Positions 1,268 through 8,274 are shown, numbered from the stretch's first letter. The stretch is 10,043 bases of DNA from a virus (IMGVR_UViG_2639762982_000013:1-10043); one strand, 5' to 3'. Notes: generated from the letters alone by a model not told the origin. Numbers and translations: made by a program.

Positions 1268-1765
1268 TCAGTACCACGATTTTTGCTTCTTCAGTGAATC
1301 GTATTGCTGTTCGCAGGATTCTCCTGCAATCCGATACTTTTCAGCCTCAGCTGCTGTTGCGTTGTAAACTCGATTGCTTTCTTCAAGCATGTCGGCGAGC
1401 ACACCGATGACCTTGCTGGCTGGCGTGCCAGTGGGGAAAGATCCGGTATAGTGTTCGGCGAGTCGCTTGGTTTTGTCAAGCTCGGCGCGCAGGCTGTCAG
1501 CAGCGGCATTAGCATGCTCAGCATCAACACGCGCCACATCGATACGGGATTGTGCTTCACGTTCAATTTGTGTTTTCTCCTGATCACGTTGTGACCTAGC
1601 CTTATCATTAGCCTGTTTCTGATCTTCCTGTGCCTGCGCATACCCGGCGTCGTACTGACGACTGCCGTGTGCATTCCAGGCTACAACTCCTGATATGACC
1701 AGAACAGCAAGCATCGCCATGATAACCAACTGTTTCCAGTATGCTTTTACGAATGCCCAGATCAT
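1268..1765 (-). CDS. Phage i-spanin (Rz-like inner-membrane spanin subunit)
   Basis: 165 aa with N-terminal TM helix, then charged helical periplasmic domain. Start overlaps endolysin stop (ATGA). Last gene of the lysis cassette and contains an embedded lipoprotein ORF. Confidence 0.7.
1291..1539 (-). CDS. Phage o-spanin (Rz1-like outer-membrane lipoprotein), embedded in the i-spanin gene in another frame
   Basis: Internal Met of the 127-aa alternate-frame ORF gives [17 protein letters not shown]…: signal peptide plus lipobox LTAC, then a Pro/Ser-rich short mature region, as in lambda Rz1. Fully nested in 1268-1765. Exact start uncertain (alternative Met at 1524); no strong SD. Confidence 0.55.
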   Translation of the reverse strand: MWRVLMLSMLMPLLTACAPSLTKPSDSPNTIPDLSPLARQPARSSVCSPTCLKKAIEFTTQQQLRLKSIGLQENPANSNTIH

Positions 1766-2391
1766 ACCGCCAGCGCCTTACTGGCAGTGATGTACCGAGC
1801 GCGCCGGTCGTCGATGCCGTTCCTGCCACCATTGATAATCAGAGTTACACGTGCAATATCGCCGGTATACTTCATGCAACCTTTGCTGGAGAAGAACCAC
1901 GCCGCGCTACGAGCCGCGTATTCGTCCTGCGCCAACAGTTCAGGATTCTCCAGCAGGTCCACTTTCAGGCCGTTTCCGCAATCACGATAGTTATTCAAAC
2001 CGGTAATCTGGATAAGTCCGCGGCCACGGTAATTCCAGCCATCACCAGAGGCATTGTTCCCCATGCGTTTGCTGTACACCAGATTGGCGATCGCTCTCTG
2101 GCGCTCGAGTGGCAATGGTGGTTCACCAGCACGGCGACCAAGTGCATTAGCCTGTCCCTGAGTGAGACGCCCAGCCCGAACGAAGTTAGCCAGTCCGGTG
2201 ACGCTGTAGTTGAAATTTTCCTGCAACCGGGTGAATCCACCAGACTCATGCCCGACCTGAGCAATAAACATTGCCTGATCTTCAGCTTTGCTGATACCAA
2301 ACTCTTTCATCGCAGAAGTTATATGCGAGAACCAGCGTGCGGCCAGCGCCTCGCTAATACCAGCAGCTCGCTGGAATTGTTTAATCTCCAT
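1762..2391 (-). CDS. Phage endolysin, glycoside hydrolase family 19 (chitinase class I-like)
   Basis: 209 aa. Motifs [21 protein letters not shown] and AAWFF typical of GH19 phage lysins. SD GAGG 8 nt upstream. Flanked by membrane proteins and spanins. Confidence 0.9.
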
Positions 2392-2689
2392 GTTTAGACC
2401 TCGTTATTTTAAAAATCTGCACGACGTTACCGCGCGTTTTAATAACCGCAGCTAGCATGACAGCGTTGATAATGACCTCAGATAAATCCACAGCCATTGG
2501 CGTACGTAACCAGATTGCATAGGCGACACGAACAGGAATACTGGCCGCAGCAACAATCAGGAAATAAGCAAGCCATCCTCCCCACCTTCGGTGTTGAGAG
2601 CCGTTACGCCGGAATGTGACAACGCGAATTGCTATGCCAGTGCAAATAACTGCATTGGTGATAAGCAAAAAAAACTCATGCGTTACCAT
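2381..2689 (-). CDS. Lysis-cassette small membrane protein (holin/antiholin-like)
   Basis: 102 aa with 2-3 predicted TM helices. SD GGAG 8 nt upstream. Overlaps the upstream gene by 14 nt and the endolysin start by 11 nt, indicating translational coupling. Confidence 0.55.
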
Positions 2690-3089
2690 CGTCTTTTCTC
2701 CCCGGAATTAACTCGCGTGGATTATCGGAACGGTGATAAAGCCATATACCAATTCGCACAGCGACAATTGACGACACAAATGCGCCAGCAGAGAAGACGA
2801 TCCCTTTCTCGAAAGAGTCCTGCGTGATGGTAGGGATCAGGCTGGCTACACCGATAAGGATGGATGCTGTAGGTTTGTAAAAGAGAAGGCCGCAGAGGAA
2901 GCTGAGCATAGACAGGAGAACCCGGCGATGAATGGGATACTCGATGGCTGAGGTAACAAAAATTACCGCCCCAGCCAAAGCTCCCAAAGCCACCTCTGGA
3001 GGAACCCCTGCTATCACCGCAGCAAGAGAACTCGCACTAAGCCACTGATTTAAAGACTCACTGGTTAGCTGAACTGACATAAAAAACAC
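2676..3089 (-). CDS. Putative holin (multi-pass membrane protein), first gene of lysis cassette
   Basis: 137 aa with 3-4 hydrophobic helices and a charged C-terminus. Position directly upstream of the endolysin. Start may be the second ATG at 3080. Family not recognised. Confidence 0.55.
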   Translation of the reverse strand: MFFMSVQLTSESLNQWLSASSLAAVIAGVPPEVALGALAGAVIFVTSAIEYPIHRRVLLSMLSFLCGLLFYKPTASILIGVASLIPTITQDSFEKGIVFSAGAFVSSIVAVRIGIWLYHRSDNPRELIPGRKDDGNA

Positions 3090-3185
3090 CGTTTAATGTG
3101 CATAAAGAATCCCCTTAGTTGGTTAGTTCATCATACACAATAAACCATATGTGGATTAAACTTGATCTGATAATTCTTAACGAAA

Positions 3186-3200
3186 TTACCTTAAAGGTGA
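3186..3200. promoter_or_regulatory. Palindromic site A (TTACC-TTAAA-GGTGA), member of a five-copy family
   Basis: Lies in the 212-bp gap between the tail fibre and the lysis operon, about 100 bp upstream of the holin start. One mismatch from a perfect palindrome. Flank ATATC is shared with site C. Confidence 0.4.
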
Positions 3201-3301
3201 TATCATAAATATCCTTGTGTCATTTAAAATTAGAGTTAGGGCATGATAGCCAACATACAATATTTGCGTTTTCTCGCTGCATTCCTTGGCGATGACTTCT
3301 C

Positions 3302-5065
3302 TTAAACAACAATTTTAAGGAAATTTGAAGCATCCTTATAGATGGTGCCCGCGGTGGCGCCGTTTATCTCCTCAAGCGTTTTTACATTCTTCAAAACCAC
3401 CTTGCCATCTTCCAGAAATTCAATGCATGGTGCGTCGTTGTTCATGTTTATTTTCAACGAACCAACAGCACTACCTCCGTTTCCGCTTATCCATTCAAGT
3501 GACGCAATAGGAAGTGCATTGCCGTTGTGATCTGTCCCTTGTAGCAAGATCCTTCCAGTTCCTACCCCTGGTATTCTGATAGCTGCGCGACCACCATCCT
3601 CTAAAACTACTTCCAAAATTTCTTTAGGATATTTTGTGTGCACTCCTACACGCGTCAGCGAACCACCACCACCAGGGACGACGGCAATACCTGGAATAAG
3701 CGATTCTGCAAAAAGCATCACTGAGTCTTTATGTGGATTGATTGCTGGCTTATCGTCATTAGTGCCGCTCCCTATCGCAATCGAACCACCATAAGCCTGA
3801 ATATTCTTACCTACAGCAAAAGAGCCATCTCCTGCCGCGCGAGTTCGATATCCAATGGCTGCCGCACCAATGCCATCACTTGCAACCCCGCCGGGGTCTG
3901 TAGTGTATCCCGGTCTGGCTTGTGTATAATAACCTGTTGCAAAAGCCGCCCTTGAAAGCGCTTCCGTTTCTTCACAGAATGCGGCAGATTTTGCTCCAAG
4001 AGCAATGACATTTTTCCCAAATGCAAAAGAGCAGTACCCCTCAGCATTTGGTGAGGTAATATGATCTGGGTCCCCAGTGGCAGAACCAGCACCACCGGCA
4101 ATAGATGCCACGCCGTACGTAACGCAGTCATGCCCGAAAGTTGTGGTGTATACCGCGAATGACGCACCGTTTCTGTTAAAAGATACTGAGTAATCACCGA
4201 TAAGAGCCGGGTTACACCATGAATTTCTCGGTGTAGGCAAGCCTCTCCAGAAGTTCTTTTCATCGTCAAGTGGTAGGAGATCGGCACCACCAATTCTCAG
4301 CCAACCTTTATCCTTATCAAAAGAAAAAGTGACGCCATCGGTTAAAGTAGATCCAACCGGTATACCGTAATTAACTTTTGTGCCAATCCTCTTAAGCCCG
4401 TCAGGTTGCGCCAGCAATAACAGAACATCTGCTGCACTACCGCTCTCAGGCAAGACCATAATGGACTCACCTGCATAATCATATGCATGGATCATATTTG
4501 CACGTTCTGCAGCAGGAGGGAGTTGCCGCGTAAATGACTCTGGAACCCTTAACGTGTGCAGATAGTTGTTGTTACTAATCGTGTCTACATAATTTTTAGT
4601 GGCAGCATCCTGCGGGTCTCGTGGGTCGCGCAGGTTGCGAATGTAATTCCCCAGCGCGTCGTACCAGTTAGCGATGGTTGATGGCTTGCGCAGCGCCAAG
4701 GCAAACCAACTGCGAACCTGCTGGATCAGCATCGTCAGTTTATCGAATGCGTCTTCATGCACCTCAGCGAAGAACTTACCCTGGTTGCGCAGATCGGTAT
4801 CCTGCGTAACCGGTAGCTCTCTTGATATAGAAATCTGATAACCGTTAGCCAACGCCTTCGACAGAATTACATTGCCGCCGTTATACCCTCCCGCACCAGT
4901 GACTATGTAATCAGTATCAAGAATCAGCTCTGTGATGTTCTCGTTCAGGTCAACAACCTGCACTACTAAATCAGATTTCTGGAAAATCCTGAAGGTATAA
5001 GGGAATGCCGTTGTAACACCGTTACCTGTGTATTCGTTGTGGTCAACTTCGGTTGAGACCGTCAT
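3302..5065 (-). CDS. Phage tail fibre / tailspike protein
   Basis: 587 aa. The N-terminal ~150 aa (MTVSTEVDHNEYTGNGVTTAFPYTF…DYIVTG) resembles the conserved T7 gp17-type virion-attachment domain. The C-terminal two thirds are Gly/Ala/Ser-rich with repeated beta-strand-like motifs (SFAVGKN, SIAIGSGT, IGAAAIGY), as in trimeric receptor-binding domains. Confidence 0.85.
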   Translation of the reverse strand: MTVSTEVDHNEYTGNGVTTAFPYTFRIFQKSDLVVQVVDLNENITELILDTDYIVTGAGGYNGGNVILSKALANGYQISISRELPVTQDTDLRNQGKFFAEVHEDAFDKLTMLIQQVRSWFALALRKPSTIANWYDALGNYIRNLRDPRDPQDAATKNYVDTISNNNYLHTLRVPESFTRQLPPAAERANMIHAYDYAGESIMVLPESGSAADVLLLLAQPDGLKRIGTKVNYGIPVGSTLTDGVTFSFDKDKGWLRIGGADLLPLDDEKNFWRGLPTPRNSWCNPALIGDYSVSFNRNGASFAVYTTTFGHDCVTYGVASIAGGAGSATGDPDHITSPNAEGYCSFAFGKNVIALGAKSAAFCEETEALSRAAFATGYYTQARPGYTTDPGGVASDGIGAAAIGYRTRAAGDGSFAVGKNIQAYGGSIAIGSGTNDDKPAINPHKDSVMLFAESLIPGIAVVPGGGGSLTRVGVHTKYPKEILEVVLEDGGRAAIRIPGVGTGRILLQGTDHNGNALPIASLEWISGNGGSAVGSLKINMNNDAPCIEFLEDGKVVLKNVKTLEEINGATAGTIYKDASNFLKIVV

Positions 5066-5169
5066 GTTAAATCTCCAGATAGTCGCAGCACCCGTTGCGC
5101 CGCATATCTGGTTATTCTATTACCTGAAAAACCACATATGGATAGAAAGACTATAAATACCAATAGATA

Positions 5170-5184
5170 TTACCTTTCGGGTAA
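5170..5184. promoter_or_regulatory. Palindromic site B (TTACC-TTTCG-GGTAA)
   Basis: Perfect 5-bp inverted arms with a 5-nt spacer in the divergent region between the tail fibre gene and the small SOS-box gene. Confidence 0.4.
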
Positions 5185-5221
5185 TTTGCAAAACGTGCTG
5201 GATAGCAAACAAATTATTTGA

Positions 5222-5241
5222 TACTGTATATTTATACAGTT
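5222..5241. promoter_or_regulatory. LexA (SOS) box
   Basis: TACTGTATATTTATACAGTT matches the E. coli LexA consensus TACTGTATATATATACAGTA at 18/20, with CTGT-N8-ACAG intact. Located 20 bp upstream of the ATG at 5261 and overlapping a plausible -10. Confidence 0.7.
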
Positions 5242-5260
5242 ATTGCATGGAGAAGATAAG

Positions 5261-5518
5261 ATGCAGCAGTATCACTATCCACTGGAAGACGGATTTACCG
5301 AAAGGATTCACACGCCGGGAGGCGTCAGGTCACTGGTGGAGGGATCGCACTTGATGAAATTACTCCGGGATCTCGATAAGGATGGATTTAATGTCGATGG
5401 CCCACTTGCCGAACTGACTGCACTGATTAACTACGTCACCAGCTCACAGATGTCTATGCTGGATCTGCAAACACATCTCGACTATTGTGCCGAACAATTA
5501 CGAAAACAAACCCGGTAA
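5261..5518 (+). CDS. Small SOS-regulated protein, candidate Tum-like antirepressor (homologous to C-terminal domain of the AntA protein at 6669-7325)
   Basis: 85 aa from the ATG at 5261 with SD GGAGAAG; the ORF track extends it to a TTG at 5243. Roughly 40% identity by eye to the last ~80 aa of the 218-aa AntA-domain protein (IH[TS]P[GS]GV…LM.LL..L..DG..V.G..AELT…D.QTH..Y). LexA box immediately upstream. Confidence 0.6.
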   Translation: MQQYHYPLEDGFTERIHTPGGVRSLVEGSHLMKLLRDLDKDGFNVDGPLAELTALINYVTSSQMSMLDLQTHLDYCAEQLRKQTR

Positions 5519-5522
5519 ATTT

Positions 5523-5542
5523 AAAGGCCGCAAGAGCGGCCT
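5523..5542. terminator. Bidirectional rho-independent terminator between convergent genes
   Basis: AGGCCGC-aaga-GCGGCCT stem-loop with A-rich 5' flank and T-rich 3' flank. Sits between the + gene ending at 5518 and the - gene ending at 5541. Confidence 0.6.
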
Positions 5543-6269
5543 ATCGTTTCGCTTTGTGCTCGTCCCAGCACGTTTTGCACCATGCCATTAAGCCATCCGC
5601 ATTTTGATTATTAGGGTAAAAGCTTGTTCGTTTTCTGCGGACATTACAAATTGGGCACCACTTCATATGGCGTGTATTCTTTGGGCCATCGAGACACCTT
5701 GCACACCACTTAGTCAATCCATCTGGATTTTTTGACGATTTCCTGAATTTTTCATATGGTAGGTTTATTCTGCATCGCAAGCACTGCTTGCTACCACTTG
5801 AAACTCTGTTAGCTGATTCTTCTTTTGGCGGCGATACAGAAGGTATTCTTGCTGGCTCTGATACTGCCTGAGGTGCTTTTTTAGATGACTGAGACGATAT
5901 GTCATCACCAGGGAATCTTCCATGATATGCCGGACGCGTTGACACTCCAGGTGGAAGCTCAGCTGTAAACGGCTTTGGCTGAATCAGTTGCCTCTCTTTT
6001 GCTAACTCCTGCTGTTTATAATATGTCTGGATTACCGCACTATCATAAGCAGGAGGTGCGGAAATATTAGGCGCATTACCTCCAGTTTTTTGAAACTGAG
6101 TAGAGGTGTGTTCTATCACCTGTGTACGATTAATCGTTATCTCCCCATCTTCGGTCTTTATCGTTTTGTTATGATTAACGACCGTACGATCAGAGATCTT
6201 AGTCTTGTTCTGGTTGATAACGTAAATAATCACCGCAACCACACCAACAACTATCCAGAAAACTTCCAT
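5541..6269 (-). CDS. Membrane-anchored protein with tandem C4 zinc-ribbon repeats (function unknown)
   Basis: 242 aa. N-terminal TM helix (residues ~4-20) followed by K/R (positive-inside), a Pro/Ser/Gln-rich linker, then two copies of CxxC-x16-DGL-x2-WC-x2-C. SD GAGGA 8 nt upstream of the ATG. Confidence 0.7.
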   Translation of the reverse strand: MEVFWIVVGVVAVIIYVINQNKTKISDRTVVNHNKTIKTEDGEITINRTQVIEHTSTQFQKTGGNAPNISAPPAYDSAVIQTYYKQQELAKERQLIQPKPFTAELPPGVSTRPAYHGRFPGDDISSQSSKKAPQAVSEPARIPSVSPPKEESANRVSSGSKQCLRCRINLPYEKFRKSSKNPDGLTKWCARCLDGPKNTRHMKWCPICNVRRKRTSFYPNNQNADGLMAWCKTCWDEHKAKR

Positions 6270-6289
6270 TGCTTTTCCTCACAATAACA

Positions 6290-6304
6290 TTACCTTAAAG
6301 GTAA
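6290..6304. promoter_or_regulatory. Palindromic site C (TTACC-TTAAA-GGTAA)
   Basis: Perfect palindrome about 10 bp upstream of the SD of the minus-strand zinc-ribbon gene. Core identical to sites A and D. Confidence 0.4.
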
Positions 6305-6382
6305 TATCTTGCTTTCAGGTGATCAAGCGTTAAACGCAATCAACCAAATACGGTTGATTTTAATATTTCTTCGCGTTTATCA

Positions 6383-6397
6383 TTACCTTTGCGGTAA
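6383..6397. promoter_or_regulatory. Palindromic site E (TTACC-TTTGC-GGTAA)
   Basis: Same arms as the other sites, with a spacer like site B. Lies just upstream of the structured leader preceding the AntA gene. Confidence 0.35.
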
Positions 6398-6488
6398 ATT
6401 TACATTGCACTCCTCTTGTGCCATAGTAATCGGGCACTGGCAAAATCCAGTGCCGGGATTGGTCTCCCGGATTACTAAGTGGCGCATA

Positions 6489-6510
6489 CCACGCCAGACG
6501 TGGTTTTTTT
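6489..6510 (+). terminator. Putative intrinsic terminator / attenuator hairpin in the leader of the AntA-like gene
   Basis: CCACG-ccaga-CGTGG followed by T7. Preceded by two GC-rich hairpins (6433-6454 and 6453-6470) that share bases, so alternative pairings are possible. Confidence 0.4.
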
Positions 6511-6668
6511 ATGCGTATAGCACAGTCATGCCAGAATTATGGTGGGCTGAATGGGGGTCCGAAAGGACGCCGGTACCACTTAGGCCGGTAAGACCAACTC
6601 CGTTCAGTTCACCACCATCTGATTGGTCTCAGCGGTGGTGATGTAATTCGCTAAGTGGAGACGCCATC

Positions 6669-7325
6669 ATGAACGCTCAACTCATCCCCGTATTCAACGG
6701 CACTATATCTAACGAAACAGCCCTACTTTGTAATGCCCGCGATCTGCACGCTTTTTTAGGTGTTAAAAAGGTGTTTGCAGCATGGATTACAAATCGCATA
6801 TCAGAATACGAATTCATTGAAAATCAAGACTATATTTTGCTTTCCAATTTGGGAAAGCAAACATCTGGTAGAGGCGGCCACAACCGCAAAGAGTACCACC
6901 TCACCCTTGATACAGCCAAAGAGCTGGCGATGGTCGAGCGTAACGAAAAAGGTCGCCAGGTGCGACGCTACTTCATTGAATGCGAGAAACGTTTAAGACA
7001 ACAAGAAACAAAAGTGGAGAAGGTCTTGTCAGGCTTCATGCCCGCCATTATGGAGGCGATCAAGCTGGAAGACAAAAAAGAATACAGCGCCCCACTGAAG
7101 CCCGGCTACCGCAGCCTGATTCATTCGCCGTCTGGTGTTCTTGGACTGACGGAGAACTCACTGCTGATGAATCTGCTGAACCAGTTACAGGACGACGGGC
7201 ATGACGTATCGGGCGCGGCGGCGGAGCTGACCACCATGTTCTGCTACATCGTCGGTGTGAGCAAATGCCTGCGTGATATCCAGACGCACGCGGAGTACAT
7301 CAGCGACAAAGCAGGATTCTTCTGA
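6669..7325 (+). CDS. Phage antirepressor-like protein, N-terminal AntA-type domain with a C-terminal domain shared with the 5261-5518 protein
   Basis: 218 aa, SD GGAG 8 nt upstream. N-terminal region ([10 protein letters not shown]…[33 protein letters not shown]) matches the AntA/pRha-type antirepressor N-domain pattern. C-terminal ~80 aa is paralogous to the small SOS-box protein. Confidence 0.8.
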
Positions 7326-7391
7326 CGGGCGGCGGCACAGGGATGTGCCTTTAAAATAATCATTGGCGATGTGATGTAGATTCGCGTAATA

Positions 7392-7406
7392 TTACCTTAA
7401 AGGTAA
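7392..7406. promoter_or_regulatory. Palindromic site D (TTACC-TTAAA-GGTAA)
   Basis: Perfect palindrome about 43 bp upstream of the ATG at 7449, the first gene of the low-GC two-gene module. Confidence 0.4.
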
Positions 7407-7448
7407 ACCTGTTTTTATTTTATACCTGTAACTTACCGGAGATTAAAG

Positions 7449-7775
7449 ATGACAAAACTTGGATTCGTGATGAGAGGTCCGGTAAGAAGCGGAACTCATG
7501 CAAAGCGTAGCAAGAGTCGTATTTTTACTGGTAAGGTTGTAGCACGTAAATCAGCTATTGGCTCGTTCAATAGTGAAAATGCGGCATTGCGCCATATTTT
7601 TATCAGCACAAAGCCAAGAGCATCCGCTGATGTGCATACAATGTCTATTCCTATCACAAAGAATATAAAGCGGATAAAAAAGCTCTCATCTGCAGAATCA
7701 AAAGAGATATCTTTCCGCCAGCTTAACTCATTAGAAACGCATATGAAGGAAGAGGAATTCGATGTTTTTGAGTGA
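7449..7775 (+). CDS. Small highly basic protein, candidate antitoxin / partner of the downstream YafO-like protein
   Basis: 108 aa, SD GGAG 8 nt upstream. Very K/R-rich N-terminal two thirds and an acidic C-terminal tail (EEEFDVFE). Overlaps the downstream gene by 14 nt. No recognisable Phd/YefM or other antitoxin fold from sequence. Confidence 0.5.
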   Translation: MTKLGFVMRGPVRSGTHAKRSKSRIFTGKVVARKSAIGSFNSENAALRHIFISTKPRASADVHTMSIPITKNIKRIKKLSSAESKEISFRQLNSLETHMKEEEFDVFE

Positions 7776-8274
7776 GTATAGCGGGAAGGTTATACCTACT
7801 GGTGAGTTTAAAACTGATGACTTTCTGATTTCGCTAAAAGATGCTTTTAAACAACACTGGCGTCATGGTCATCATCCTGATCTGGGAAAAGATACTCTTT
7901 TTGAAAGACCAGACGAAGTATTAGGCTTCCATCTCAGAAAGGTTCATGTCAATATTGGTGAATATGCATCATATTCATACTCATGTACTGAACAGTGTTG
8001 GGATGAGTGGTCATATGGATTGATTGATGAACAAGGAAATTACAGGCCAAAACCAACCAGTAACGCATATCTCATATATGCAGTCAATGAAATAAGAGAT
8101 GCAGCCTTACTAGCTTATTGGGACCCGCCCGCACACACCAAAGCTAACGCAAAAGTTTGGATGGATTCCGTATTGAATTTCACAAAATTATTTCATGAAC
8201 GAACGAATACAGCCCCACTTAGTAGAAATGTTTATCCGTGGGATTATTCGTACAAATCCAAAAAGCCTGCATAG
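7762..8274 (+). CDS. YafO-like toxin-domain protein (putative ribosome-dependent mRNA interferase)
   Basis: 170 aa with a strong SD (AGGAAGAGGA). From memory of E. coli YafO, the motifs align: PDLGKDTLFE / FHLRKVHVNI / AYLIYAV…AALLAYWDPPAHTKA versus YafO PDIFGRDALYD / FERVAHIHLA / AHLVYCQ…AWLLIAILKPEPHKLA. About 40 aa longer than YafO. Local GC is about 38-40% against about 50% in the flanks. Confidence 0.55.
   Translation: MFLSEYSGKVIPTGEFKTDDFLISLKDAFKQHWRHGHHPDLGKDTLFERPDEVLGFHLRKVHVNIGEYASYSYSCTEQCWDEWSYGLIDEQGNYRPKPTSNAYLIYAVNEIRDAALLAYWDPPAHTKANAKVWMDSVLNFTKLFHERTNTAPLSRNVYPWDYSYKSKKPA

Follow-up and report, generated by a model that had tools for sequence, protein, structure and literature searches.

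Dispersed palindromes in the right arm of an epsilon15-like Escherichia coli prophage are very probably operators of the lysogeny repressor Rep

The window, i.e. the whole stretch of 10,043 nucleotides of viral DNA analysed here, is by sequence comparison the right arm of an epsilon15-like E. coli prophage (Uetakevirus, as phiV10 and TL-2011b) between yfgI and guaA. It matches TL-2011b, phiv142-3 and E. coli prophages at 93-98%, an attR core is present at 1164-1180, and a complete relative sits between yfgI and guaA. Five 17-bp palindromes, predicted below to be operators of the repressor Rep, are scattered between its genes.

The lysis cassette (1268-3089, minus strand) encodes two holin-type proteins, a GH19 endolysin and a spanin. 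The first palindrome, ATTACCTTAAAGGTGAT (3185-3201, referred to as 3186), lies 97 bp upstream of it and has one arm reading GGTGA. The tailspike gene (3302-5065, minus strand) is downstream of the second palindrome, ATTACCTTTCGGGTAAT (5169-5185, referred to as 5170), which is located in the divergent region between this gene and ant and begins 91 bp before the ant ATG. The ant gene (5261-5518, plus strand; phrog_450) encodes an 85-aa antirepressor orthologous to SPC32H Ant, and residues 2-84 match PDB 5D50 chain E with E = 4e-46. A LexA (SOS) box, TACTGTATATTTATACAGTT (5222-5241), is found 20 bp upstream of ant; it differs from the consensus used at one position, and 0.01 such boxes would be expected by chance.

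The next gene (5541-6269, minus strand) encodes a 242-aa zinc-ribbon protein (phrog_6762), the cargo of an inserted cassette covering approximately 5519-6376. The third palindrome, ATTACCTTAAAGGTAAT (6289-6305, referred to as 6290), is 21 bp upstream of its start. This site is seen only in loci that contain the zinc-ribbon cassette (24 of 81 loci; TL-2011b 34478) and, judging from this distribution, it travels with the cassette. The fourth, ATTACCTTTGCGGTAAA (6382-6398, referred to as 6383), stands at the head of the isrK/C4/antA unit. Here, the leader RNAs upstream of antA (6434-6619, plus strand) comprise an isrK-like RNA (6434-6510) and a C4 antisense-like RNA (6535-6619), and the Rfam matches in this leader, RF01394 with 67.7 bits and RF01695 with 61.2 bits, both exceed the gathering scores. 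They are followed by a second antirepressor-type protein (6669-7325, plus strand), in which an AntA N-terminal domain is fused to an Ant-like C-terminal domain, the latter being 40% identical to Ant. The fifth palindrome, ATTACCTTAAAGGTAAA (7391-7407, referred to as 7392), lies 43 bp upstream of an accessory module (7449-8274, plus strand) that consists of a 108-aa protein (phrog_5933) and a 170-aa YafO-like protein. In the operator-headed cargo, PADLOC identified no defence systems and Pfam returned mostly unknown function. The initial annotation had placed a different transcription unit next to each site, and its neighbours are correct: the lysis cassette, the divergent tailspike and LexA-controlled gene, the zinc-ribbon gene, the AntA leader and the YafO-like module, which it called toxin-like.

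A motif search over the whole window finds exact TTACC-N5-GGTAA at 5170, 6290, 6383 and 7392, while the copy at 3186, TTACCTTAAAGGTGA, contains one mismatch. The five positions in the initial annotation are therefore correct, and so are its spacers (TTAAA three times, TTTCG and TTTGC once each) and the G that it noted in one arm (GGTGA at 3186). Shuffled versions of the window contain on average 0.01 exact copies, and none of 200 shuffles reached four; with one mismatch allowed the expectation is 0.14. Genes were mapped from ORFs with the help of the annotated closest prophage; on this map only 13.9% of the window is non-coding, and all five palindromes fall inside this part, in agreement with the claim that every copy is intergenic. 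Under a first-order Markov model of the window's intergenic DNA itself (40% GC), 0.0012 exact copies are expected in intergenic DNA, or 0.06 with up to one mismatch. The density in coding and random DNA had been put forward in the initial annotation as a check; the motif lies far above both the shuffles and the intergenic Markov model, and coding sequence contains no copy with one mismatch or fewer. Four two-mismatch matches, all within coding sequence, look like noise. The five palindromes are real and far above chance.

Of 59 distinct exact sites, 98% have A or T at the centre, and the consensus can be written as a 17-bp A-TTACC-(W-rich N5)-GGTAA-T with a central W. The arms are invariant and the loops variable; arms that stay fixed while the loops vary are the signature of a protein recognizing DNA. 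It is very improbable that the palindromes are instead RNA hairpins, acting as terminators or processing sites, or chance products of AT-rich DNA. Each site can indeed fold into a hairpin of 5-7 bp; however, these hairpins are weak (-3.7 to -5.6 kcal/mol), direct inspection found no U tract behind any of the five, and no terminator-like match in a consensus scan coincides with any of them. The invariant arms with variable loops also argue against the RNA reading, as the intergenic expectation of 0.0012 does against a chance origin. Both intrinsic terminators and AT-rich composition were therefore rejected.

We suggest that the five palindromes are very probably operators of Rep, the master lysogeny repressor of Uetakevirus, whose gene lies beyond the window. 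Rep has two HTH domains, and Pfam detects only HTH domains in it and no LexA/S24-type cleavage domain. With E = 4e-42, phiV10-type Rep is homologous to the crystallised SPC32H repressor (5D50_A), and the alignment to this structure includes the C-terminal half of Rep. A passage of PMC9638917, citing Kim et al. 2016, reports Rep as a tetramer on palindromic DNA that is disassembled by a tetrameric Ant. The dimeric HTH regulator of the initial annotation thus keeps its HTH but, going by that passage, is not a simple dimer. In relatives, rep is found approximately 28 kb from the window sites, and its presence in this prophage is taken from them.

The association between Rep and the motif extends beyond the closest phages. 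Aligning three Rep types against genome contigs yielded six full-length Rep homologues with 41-75% identity, from six species and five genera, and the motif is present on both sides of rep in all six. In an unbiased palindrome count at those Rep loci, the top entry is TTACC with N5. At five loci with only a weak N-terminal Rep match there is no exact motif, and the single match with one mismatch is 2.5 kb from the gene. A scan of viral contigs with Rep gave only 100% identical Rep and is uninformative for covariation.

The complete genomes of TL-2011b, phiV10, epsilon15 and SPC32H contain 14-18 copies of the motif each, versus 0.5-0.8 expected, with 2-3 copies on each flank of rep. This arrangement of rep with operators on both flanks, which is OL/OR-like, is seen in every relative examined, rep itself being outside the 10-kb window. 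The ant-proximal site is kept in 78 of the 81 related loci, between -88 and -95 relative to the start codon of ant; the remaining sites, too, reappear at constant offsets. Orthologues of 3186 are found at 3966 in the related locus L004, at 24692 in phiV10, 24704 in epsilon15 and 24782 in SPC32H; those of 6383 at 6336 in L004, 20497 in phiV10 and 34385 in TL-2011b. The orthologue of 5170 is epsilon15 19895-19911, annotated as protein_bind 'repressor'; it is one of seven exact sites that the epsilon15 RefSeq record annotates as protein_bind 'repressor / lysogeny'. The phiV10 and TL-2011b records carry no annotation of the sites. Both the motif and its positions are thus conserved in related prophages, the comparison that the initial annotation had proposed, and the window has the palindrome, the orthologous positions and the Ant gene behind a LexA box that are expected of epsilon15-like Rep operators. 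The initial annotation proposed an operator set for one HTH regulator with sites heading separate units, and this part stands. However, the regulator is very probably the master repressor Rep and not one reserved for late and accessory genes; its operators are densest at the rep flanks and number 14-18 genome-wide.

The sites could also be bound mainly by another regulator, either the Cro-like protein beside rep or a late-gene activator, namely the small 'transcriptional regulator' encoded ahead of terS. The sites do precede late operons (terS, head genes, tailspike, lysis), several of their promoters combine, in our own reading, -10-like hexamers with a poor -35 as in activator-dependent promoters, and by analogy with lambda a Cro-type protein is expected on the operators of the repressor. 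We still find this quite unlikely, as the density is highest and the layout OL/OR-like at the rep flanks in every genus examined, and the epsilon15 authors gave these sites to the repressor in the record annotation. Further, the Cro-like and late-regulator proteins have no Pfam DNA-binding match that would allow an argument from specificity. The proposal is in any case compatible with Rep as the main regulator, and a Cro-like protein probably shares the sites of Rep.

The position of the operators relative to promoters is informative. In 153 site contexts, which are phylogenetically related and not independent, operator position 1 coincides with the end of a -10-like hexamer on 52% of sides versus 12.7% in the background, and the enrichment peaks at this offset only. 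A -10 ending at the first T of the operator fits repression at the start of transcription. In the window, TTGATT-18-TATCAT has its -10 ending on the first T of 6383, and the -35 of a second promoter-like sequence, TTTACA-17-CATAGT, begins 2 bp after this operator. At 7392, reading by eye gives a -10-like TAATAT (7387-7392) whose final base is the first T of the operator, and TTGGCG 18 bp before it. Operator 3186 fills the spacer of a plus-strand promoter-like TTAACG-18-TATCAT; at 3186 and 5170 no convincing promoter with an operator-fused -10 was found. The immunity region of L004 has operators that occupy the spacer of a PR-like promoter and directly adjoin the -10 of a PL-like one. A consensus promoter scan of the window showed no overall enrichment (8 versus 7.7 expected), so the individual promoters, which are consensus matches only, are treated as predictions and only the aggregate -10 fusion is used as evidence. 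The site equivalent to 3186 adjoins the O-antigen conversion genes in phiV10, epsilon15 and SPC32H. These genes should be expressed in lysogens, so some sites may be regulated in another way than by simple repression.

The initial annotation offered a second reading, in which the palindromes delimit exchangeable cassettes. They would then be homology patches for exchange between prophages, besides or instead of being operators. At two of the five sites, 6383 and 7392, this describes the data well: of the BLAST HSPs against relatives, 47 begin at 6377, 6 bp ahead of operator 6383, and 35 end at 7406-7409, at the last base of operator 7392. An identical upstream segment with its operator is joined to at least three cargo contexts downstream, with nine downstream contexts in all. 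Further, the zinc-ribbon cassette has its own operator, and epsilon15-like phages of this kind encode RecE/RecT-type recombinases. However, equally strong breakpoints are found at operator-free gene ends (5500-5550, 6625-6675, 7050-7075, 8275, 8550 and 9025), on its left side the zinc-ribbon cassette is bounded by the ant stop codon and not by an operator, and most operators are in non-variable regions, i.e. the rep flanks, terS, the head genes and int. A regulatory site conserved by selection amid variable cargo would give HSPs that end at its edge even if it played no part in recombination, and an identical stretch of 15 bp is very short for homologous exchange. As a cause of the pattern, homology patches are therefore unlikely, and the cassette junctions at operators are probably a consequence of operator conservation.

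With Rep as the regulator, the following switch can be proposed. In the lysogen, Rep would sit on 17-bp sites that are fused to or overlap core promoter elements; bound Rep would cover about -7 to +9, the -10 hexamer typically ending at the first T of the site. It would thereby silence every lytic and accessory transcription unit, here the lysis cassette, the tailspike/ant region, the zinc-ribbon cassette, the isrK/C4-antA unit and the YafO-like module. Upon SOS induction, LexA would leave its box and Ant would be made; Ant would then dismantle the Rep tetramer, so that all dispersed operators are vacated together. Both the binding of Rep and the direction of regulation at each site are what we infer from the sequence.

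It can be speculated that the operators have roles beyond repression, although we regard this as doubtful. Each exchangeable cargo cassette of the accessory arm would then be plugged in immediately behind a Rep operator, whose edge (6377; 7406-7409) would also be the mosaic joint by which new cargo enters the Rep regulon, and/or Rep would be a dual regulator. From a site centred near -44, which immediately precedes the -35 of the isrK/C4 promoter, Rep could activate or spare transcription in the lysogen, and it could do the same beside the O-antigen conversion genes of relatives. If the dual-regulator reading is true, the Rep-repressed AntA-Ant fusion would be a feed-forward lock on induction.

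The feature is of an ordinary, well-understood kind, and the motif has already been described as the Rep site of epsilon15- and phiV10-like phages. What the analysis provides is a concrete, testable regulator for five intergenic sites. One repressor, released by an SOS-induced antirepressor, probably controls four kinds of module (lysis, tailspike, second antirepressor and cargo) in a type of E. coli prophage that is very common. Annotating the sites where they are missing, as in phiV10 and TL-2011b, would help to predict which cargo genes are silent in lysogens.

Several known systems resemble this one. The operators of lambda CI/Cro are also 17 bp long with an ACC...GGT core, lie on both sides of the repressor gene, overlap promoters and involve higher-order oligomers. 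The likeness to lambdoid operators drawn in the initial annotation is real at the half-site level only, as lambda half-sites are TCACC-N3-GGTGA whereas the window motif has N5. Unlike in lambda, induction here would be by an antirepressor, and the operators are genome-wide rather than in the immunity region only. A lambdoid CI operator was rejected based on the 5-bp spacing and on Rep having no detected S24 domain.

In phage P1, one master repressor, C1, governs many unlinked operons from operators spread genome-wide, including Op51 at immI (c4-icd-ant). The dispersed operators and the antirepressor unit with a C4 leader (here behind operator 6383) are shared features. However, the C1 operator is an asymmetric 17-mer while the window sites are palindromic, and C1 is, as far as known, unrelated to Rep. 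The C1 operator ATTGCTCTAATAAATTT has no match in the window at up to 3 mismatches. The stoperators of mycobacteriophage L5 gp71 are likewise many immunity-repressor sites in short intergenic regions throughout the genome; these are asymmetric 13-mers that depend on orientation within transcribed DNA, whereas the window sites are symmetric and fused to -10 elements.

The closest system is the epsilon15 gp38 / SPC32H Rep-Ant-LexA switch (PDB 5D50/5D4Z), and as the motif and the switch are already described for these phages, no new mechanism is implied. Unlike the window, epsilon15 and SPC32H are without the operator-headed zinc-ribbon gene, isrK/C4-antA unit and YafO-like module. The 17-bp palindrome, ATTACC-N5-GGTAAT, is the same; Ant is approximately 85% identical, a LexA box precedes ant and Rep is homologous. 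The matching positions are ant/tailspike, lysis, the rep flanks, terS, the head genes and int.

The window matches the Uetakevirus (epsilon15-like) phages TL-2011b, phiv142-3 and phiV10 as well as many E. coli prophages, with epsilon15 being more distant. Positions 1–1163 are host DNA with the chromosomal genes yfgH (1–516) and yfgI (532–1071), and the published attP core ATTGAGTGGGAATGATT, as quoted in PMC9782041, is found at 1164–1180 as the attR core. In a relative of 97.7% identity, yfgI and guaA flank the entire prophage, so the window holds the right arm of the prophage. A strong hairpin flanked by A/T runs lies at ~1113–1139, within the host/prophage junction (1–1180). The arm then carries a lysis cassette (1268–3089, minus strand), a tailspike gene (3302–5065, minus), a LexA box (5222–5241) ahead of a small gene (5261–5518), a zinc-ribbon gene (5541–6269, minus), an AntA-type gene with a structured leader in front (6669–7325, plus), a 108-aa/YafO-like module (7449–8274) and, last, the end of a virion gene.

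The palindrome family in this arm is real and highly non-random. A motif scan finds exact TTACC-N5-GGTAA at 5170, 6290, 6383 and 7392, while dinucleotide shuffles of the window (n = 200) contain on average 0.01 exact copies and never four or more (0/200). Allowing one mismatch adds site 3186 (TTACCTTAAAGGTGA), with 0.14 expected. The initial annotation described five copies, all intergenic, and both their sequences and their spacers agree with what we find: on a gene map built from the ORF list, family searches and the annotation of the closest complete prophage, all five sites fall in the 13.9% of the window that is non-coding. A first-order Markov model of intergenic DNA predicts 0.0012 exact copies, compared with four found, and 0.06 at up to one mismatch, which excludes a chance origin. 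A reading as terminators is also rejected, since the hairpins of the five sites are weak (−3.7 to −5.6 kcal/mol) and, read directly, none of them is followed by a U tract.

Judged by sequence, the palindromes are copies of the repressor operator known from epsilon15-like phages, and this E. coli prophage is a further instance. In their complete genomes, TL-2011b, phiV10 and epsilon15 each hold 14–15 copies at up to one mismatch (0.5–0.8 expected), and SPC32H holds 18. That the sites form an operator set had been proposed earlier and is supported. The 14–18 copies per genome cluster at the flanks of the lysogeny repressor gene rep: in all four phages the gene has two to three copies on each side, in an OL/OR-like manner. 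The other copies, single or paired, precede terS, head genes, the ant/tailspike divergent region, lysis genes, int and a post-replication gene. Seven protein_bind features of 16–17 bp carry the label "repressor / lysogeny" in the RefSeq record of epsilon15, and an exact copy of the motif falls on each of the seven; the feature at 19895..19911, between gp19 and the tail fibre gene, is orthologous by position to window site 5170. The rep gene itself lies outside the window.

The association with rep extends to diverged repressors. Three Rep types were aligned and one genome per bacterial species was scanned, giving six full-length homologues (41–75% identical) from Superficieibacter, Candidatus Erwinia dacicola, Klebsiella, two Citrobacter species and Scandinavium. 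Every one of these loci has two to three sites within ~120 bp upstream of rep and two to three more, ~50 to ~200 bp away, downstream; five of the six have an extra 62-bp operator pair ~2.3–2.7 kb upstream. In an unbiased count of 5-N(3–7)-5 palindromes around rep, (TTACC, N5) ranks first. The exact motif is absent from five distant loci sharing only a weak N-terminal Rep match, where the sole match is a single one-mismatch copy 2.5 kb from the gene. The phiV10-type Rep aligns with the SPC32H repressor of known crystal structure (5D50_A, E = 4e-42), and a domain search returned HTH_3 plus a weaker HTH hit, with nothing beyond these. A secondary source (PMC9638917) states that tetramers of Rep from SPC32H bind palindromic DNA sites and are broken by the antirepressor Ant, itself a tetramer.

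The sites also keep their positions. Among 81 loci (80 viral contigs retrieved with Ant, and the window), 78 have an operator at −88 to −95 from the ant ATG, and the other sites recur at fixed offsets: the isrK-proximal operator lies at +289, at +1029/+1122 with the zinc-ribbon cassette (24 loci) or at +1234/+1359 with another insert. Nearly all loci have a further operator after the AntA/Bro gene, followed by at least nine different downstream contexts.

These variable contexts bear on a minor and non-exclusive alternative from the initial annotation, namely that the palindromes are recombination points delimiting cassettes. Different cargo is joined to identical upstream DNA and an identical operator, and BLAST breakpoints pile up at two sites, with 47 HSP starts at 6377, 6 bp ahead of operator 6383, and 35 HSP ends at 7406–7409, the last base of operator 7392. 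For these two sites the description is thus right. However, equally strong breakpoints occur at operator-free gene ends, the zinc-ribbon cassette has its left boundary at the ant stop codon, most operators of the genome lie in non-variable DNA, and a conserved regulatory island amid variable cargo would give the same picture.

Most of the cargo belongs to families of unknown function (YafO-like, DUF4760, DUF2335), and a PADLOC search of the operator-headed cargo gave no defence matches. Window ~5519–6376 is an inserted zinc-ribbon cassette that brings a terminator and a Rep operator of its own. It occurs in TL-2011b and in 24 of the 81 loci and is missing from phiV10 and the closest E. coli relative; its 242-aa protein has two C-terminal zinc-ribbon/endonuclease VII-like or Lar-like matches. 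A mosaic joint within the tailspike gene (4575–4725, ~340–490 nt from its 5' end) separates a conserved from a variable part, presumably a putative N-terminal head-binding and a putative receptor-binding part. Another lies within the AntA gene (7050–7075, ~codon 130), just ahead of the residues matching the Ant family (135–216).

The antA leader, which follows immediately on a Rep operator, contains Rfam-significant isrK-like (6434–6510, plus, 67.7 bits) and C4 antisense-like (6535–6619, plus, 61.2 bits) RNAs. The isrK model begins at 6434, in keeping with a predicted promoter, TTTACA(6399)-17-CATAGT(6427). This leader is an antirepressor control module of the P1 immI/Gifsy-1 isrK-anrP type. 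The C-terminal domain of the AntA-domain protein (residues 137–214) shares 40% identity with the small Ant of SPC32H type, so the prophage has two Ant-type antirepressors. The small one is under LexA control and the AntA-Ant protein stands behind a Rep operator and antisense-RNA control, an arrangement that suggests a possible feed-forward loop.

Several operators are placed within promoter-like sequences. In a PGAP-annotated relative, the spacer of a PR-like promoter (TTGTTA-17-TATTAT) directed at a cro-like gene is taken up by one operator, and a second adjoins the −10 of a PL-like promoter (TTGACA-17-AATTAT). Rep may share its operators with a Cro-like protein or with a late regulator. In the window, a consensus scan finds TTGATT-18-TATCAT at 6383, its last base being the first T of the operator, although such calls are consensus matches and the scan overall is not enriched (8 found, 7.7 expected). 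TTGGCG-18-TAATAT, read by eye, has the same register at 7392, and there is no clear promoter with a fused −10 at 3186 or 5170. In a set of 153 distinct contexts, operator position 1 is the last base of a hexamer matching TATAAT at 4/6 positions or more on 52% of operator sides; among T-ending hexamers of the nearby background the share is 12.7%. One or both sides show this in 74% of sites (24% expected); the contexts are related sequences, so these figures describe a trend and not a P value. The peak is confined to a single offset.

With this geometry, bound Rep would cover about −7 to +9 and block initiation. The 85-aa protein encoded behind the LexA box matches SPC32H Ant (5D50_E, E = 4e-46), and Ant is made after LexA cleavage, according to a review (PMC7380047). 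We suggest that the SOS response would release LexA from its box, Ant would be produced and would take the Rep tetramer apart, and all operators would then be vacated at once. The equivalent of site 3186 in phiV10, epsilon15 and SPC32H lies between lysis genes and O-antigen conversion genes. As conversion genes are expected to be expressed in lysogens, the direction of regulation may differ between operators. Window 3177–3301 (plus) holds promoter-like TTAACG-18-(TG)TATCAT, with operator 3186 as its spacer, facing ~100 bp of non-coding DNA up to the tailspike stop codon. The matching position drives O-antigen modification genes in those three phages; the window is without them, and the site is probably a leftover of a lost conversion module.

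As annotated, terS of phiV10 (41–715) and of the PGAP-annotated prophage (27306–27980) starts upstream of two Rep operators, whereas these two operators precede the shorter terS of epsilon15, SPC32H and TL-2011b. The longer start is probably a mis-annotation.

From 59 distinct exact sites we derived a symmetrised matrix, which reads A-TTACC-(T/A)(T)(W)(A)(A/T)-GGTAA-T and is 98% A/T at its centre. Across eleven relatives (L001–L005, L086–L091) and the window pair 6290/6383, neighbouring operators are strikingly phased, with start-to-start distances of 62 bp (n = 19) and recurrent ones of 17–18, 30, 48, 76 and 93 bp; the window pair, at 93 bp, is separated by about nine helical turns. We infer that the phasing suits a tetramer with two DNA-binding pairs, and it is suggestive of cooperative or looped binding.

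What is added here is modest: each accessory cassette has an operator of its own at its head, two mosaic joints coincide with operator edges, and the −10 is fused to the operator. A P1-type operator is ruled out, as its consensus has no match in the window at up to three mismatches. The lambdoid likeness raised in the initial annotation holds for the half-sites only; these operators differ from lambda-type ones both in the spacing of their half-sites and in the architecture of the repressor.
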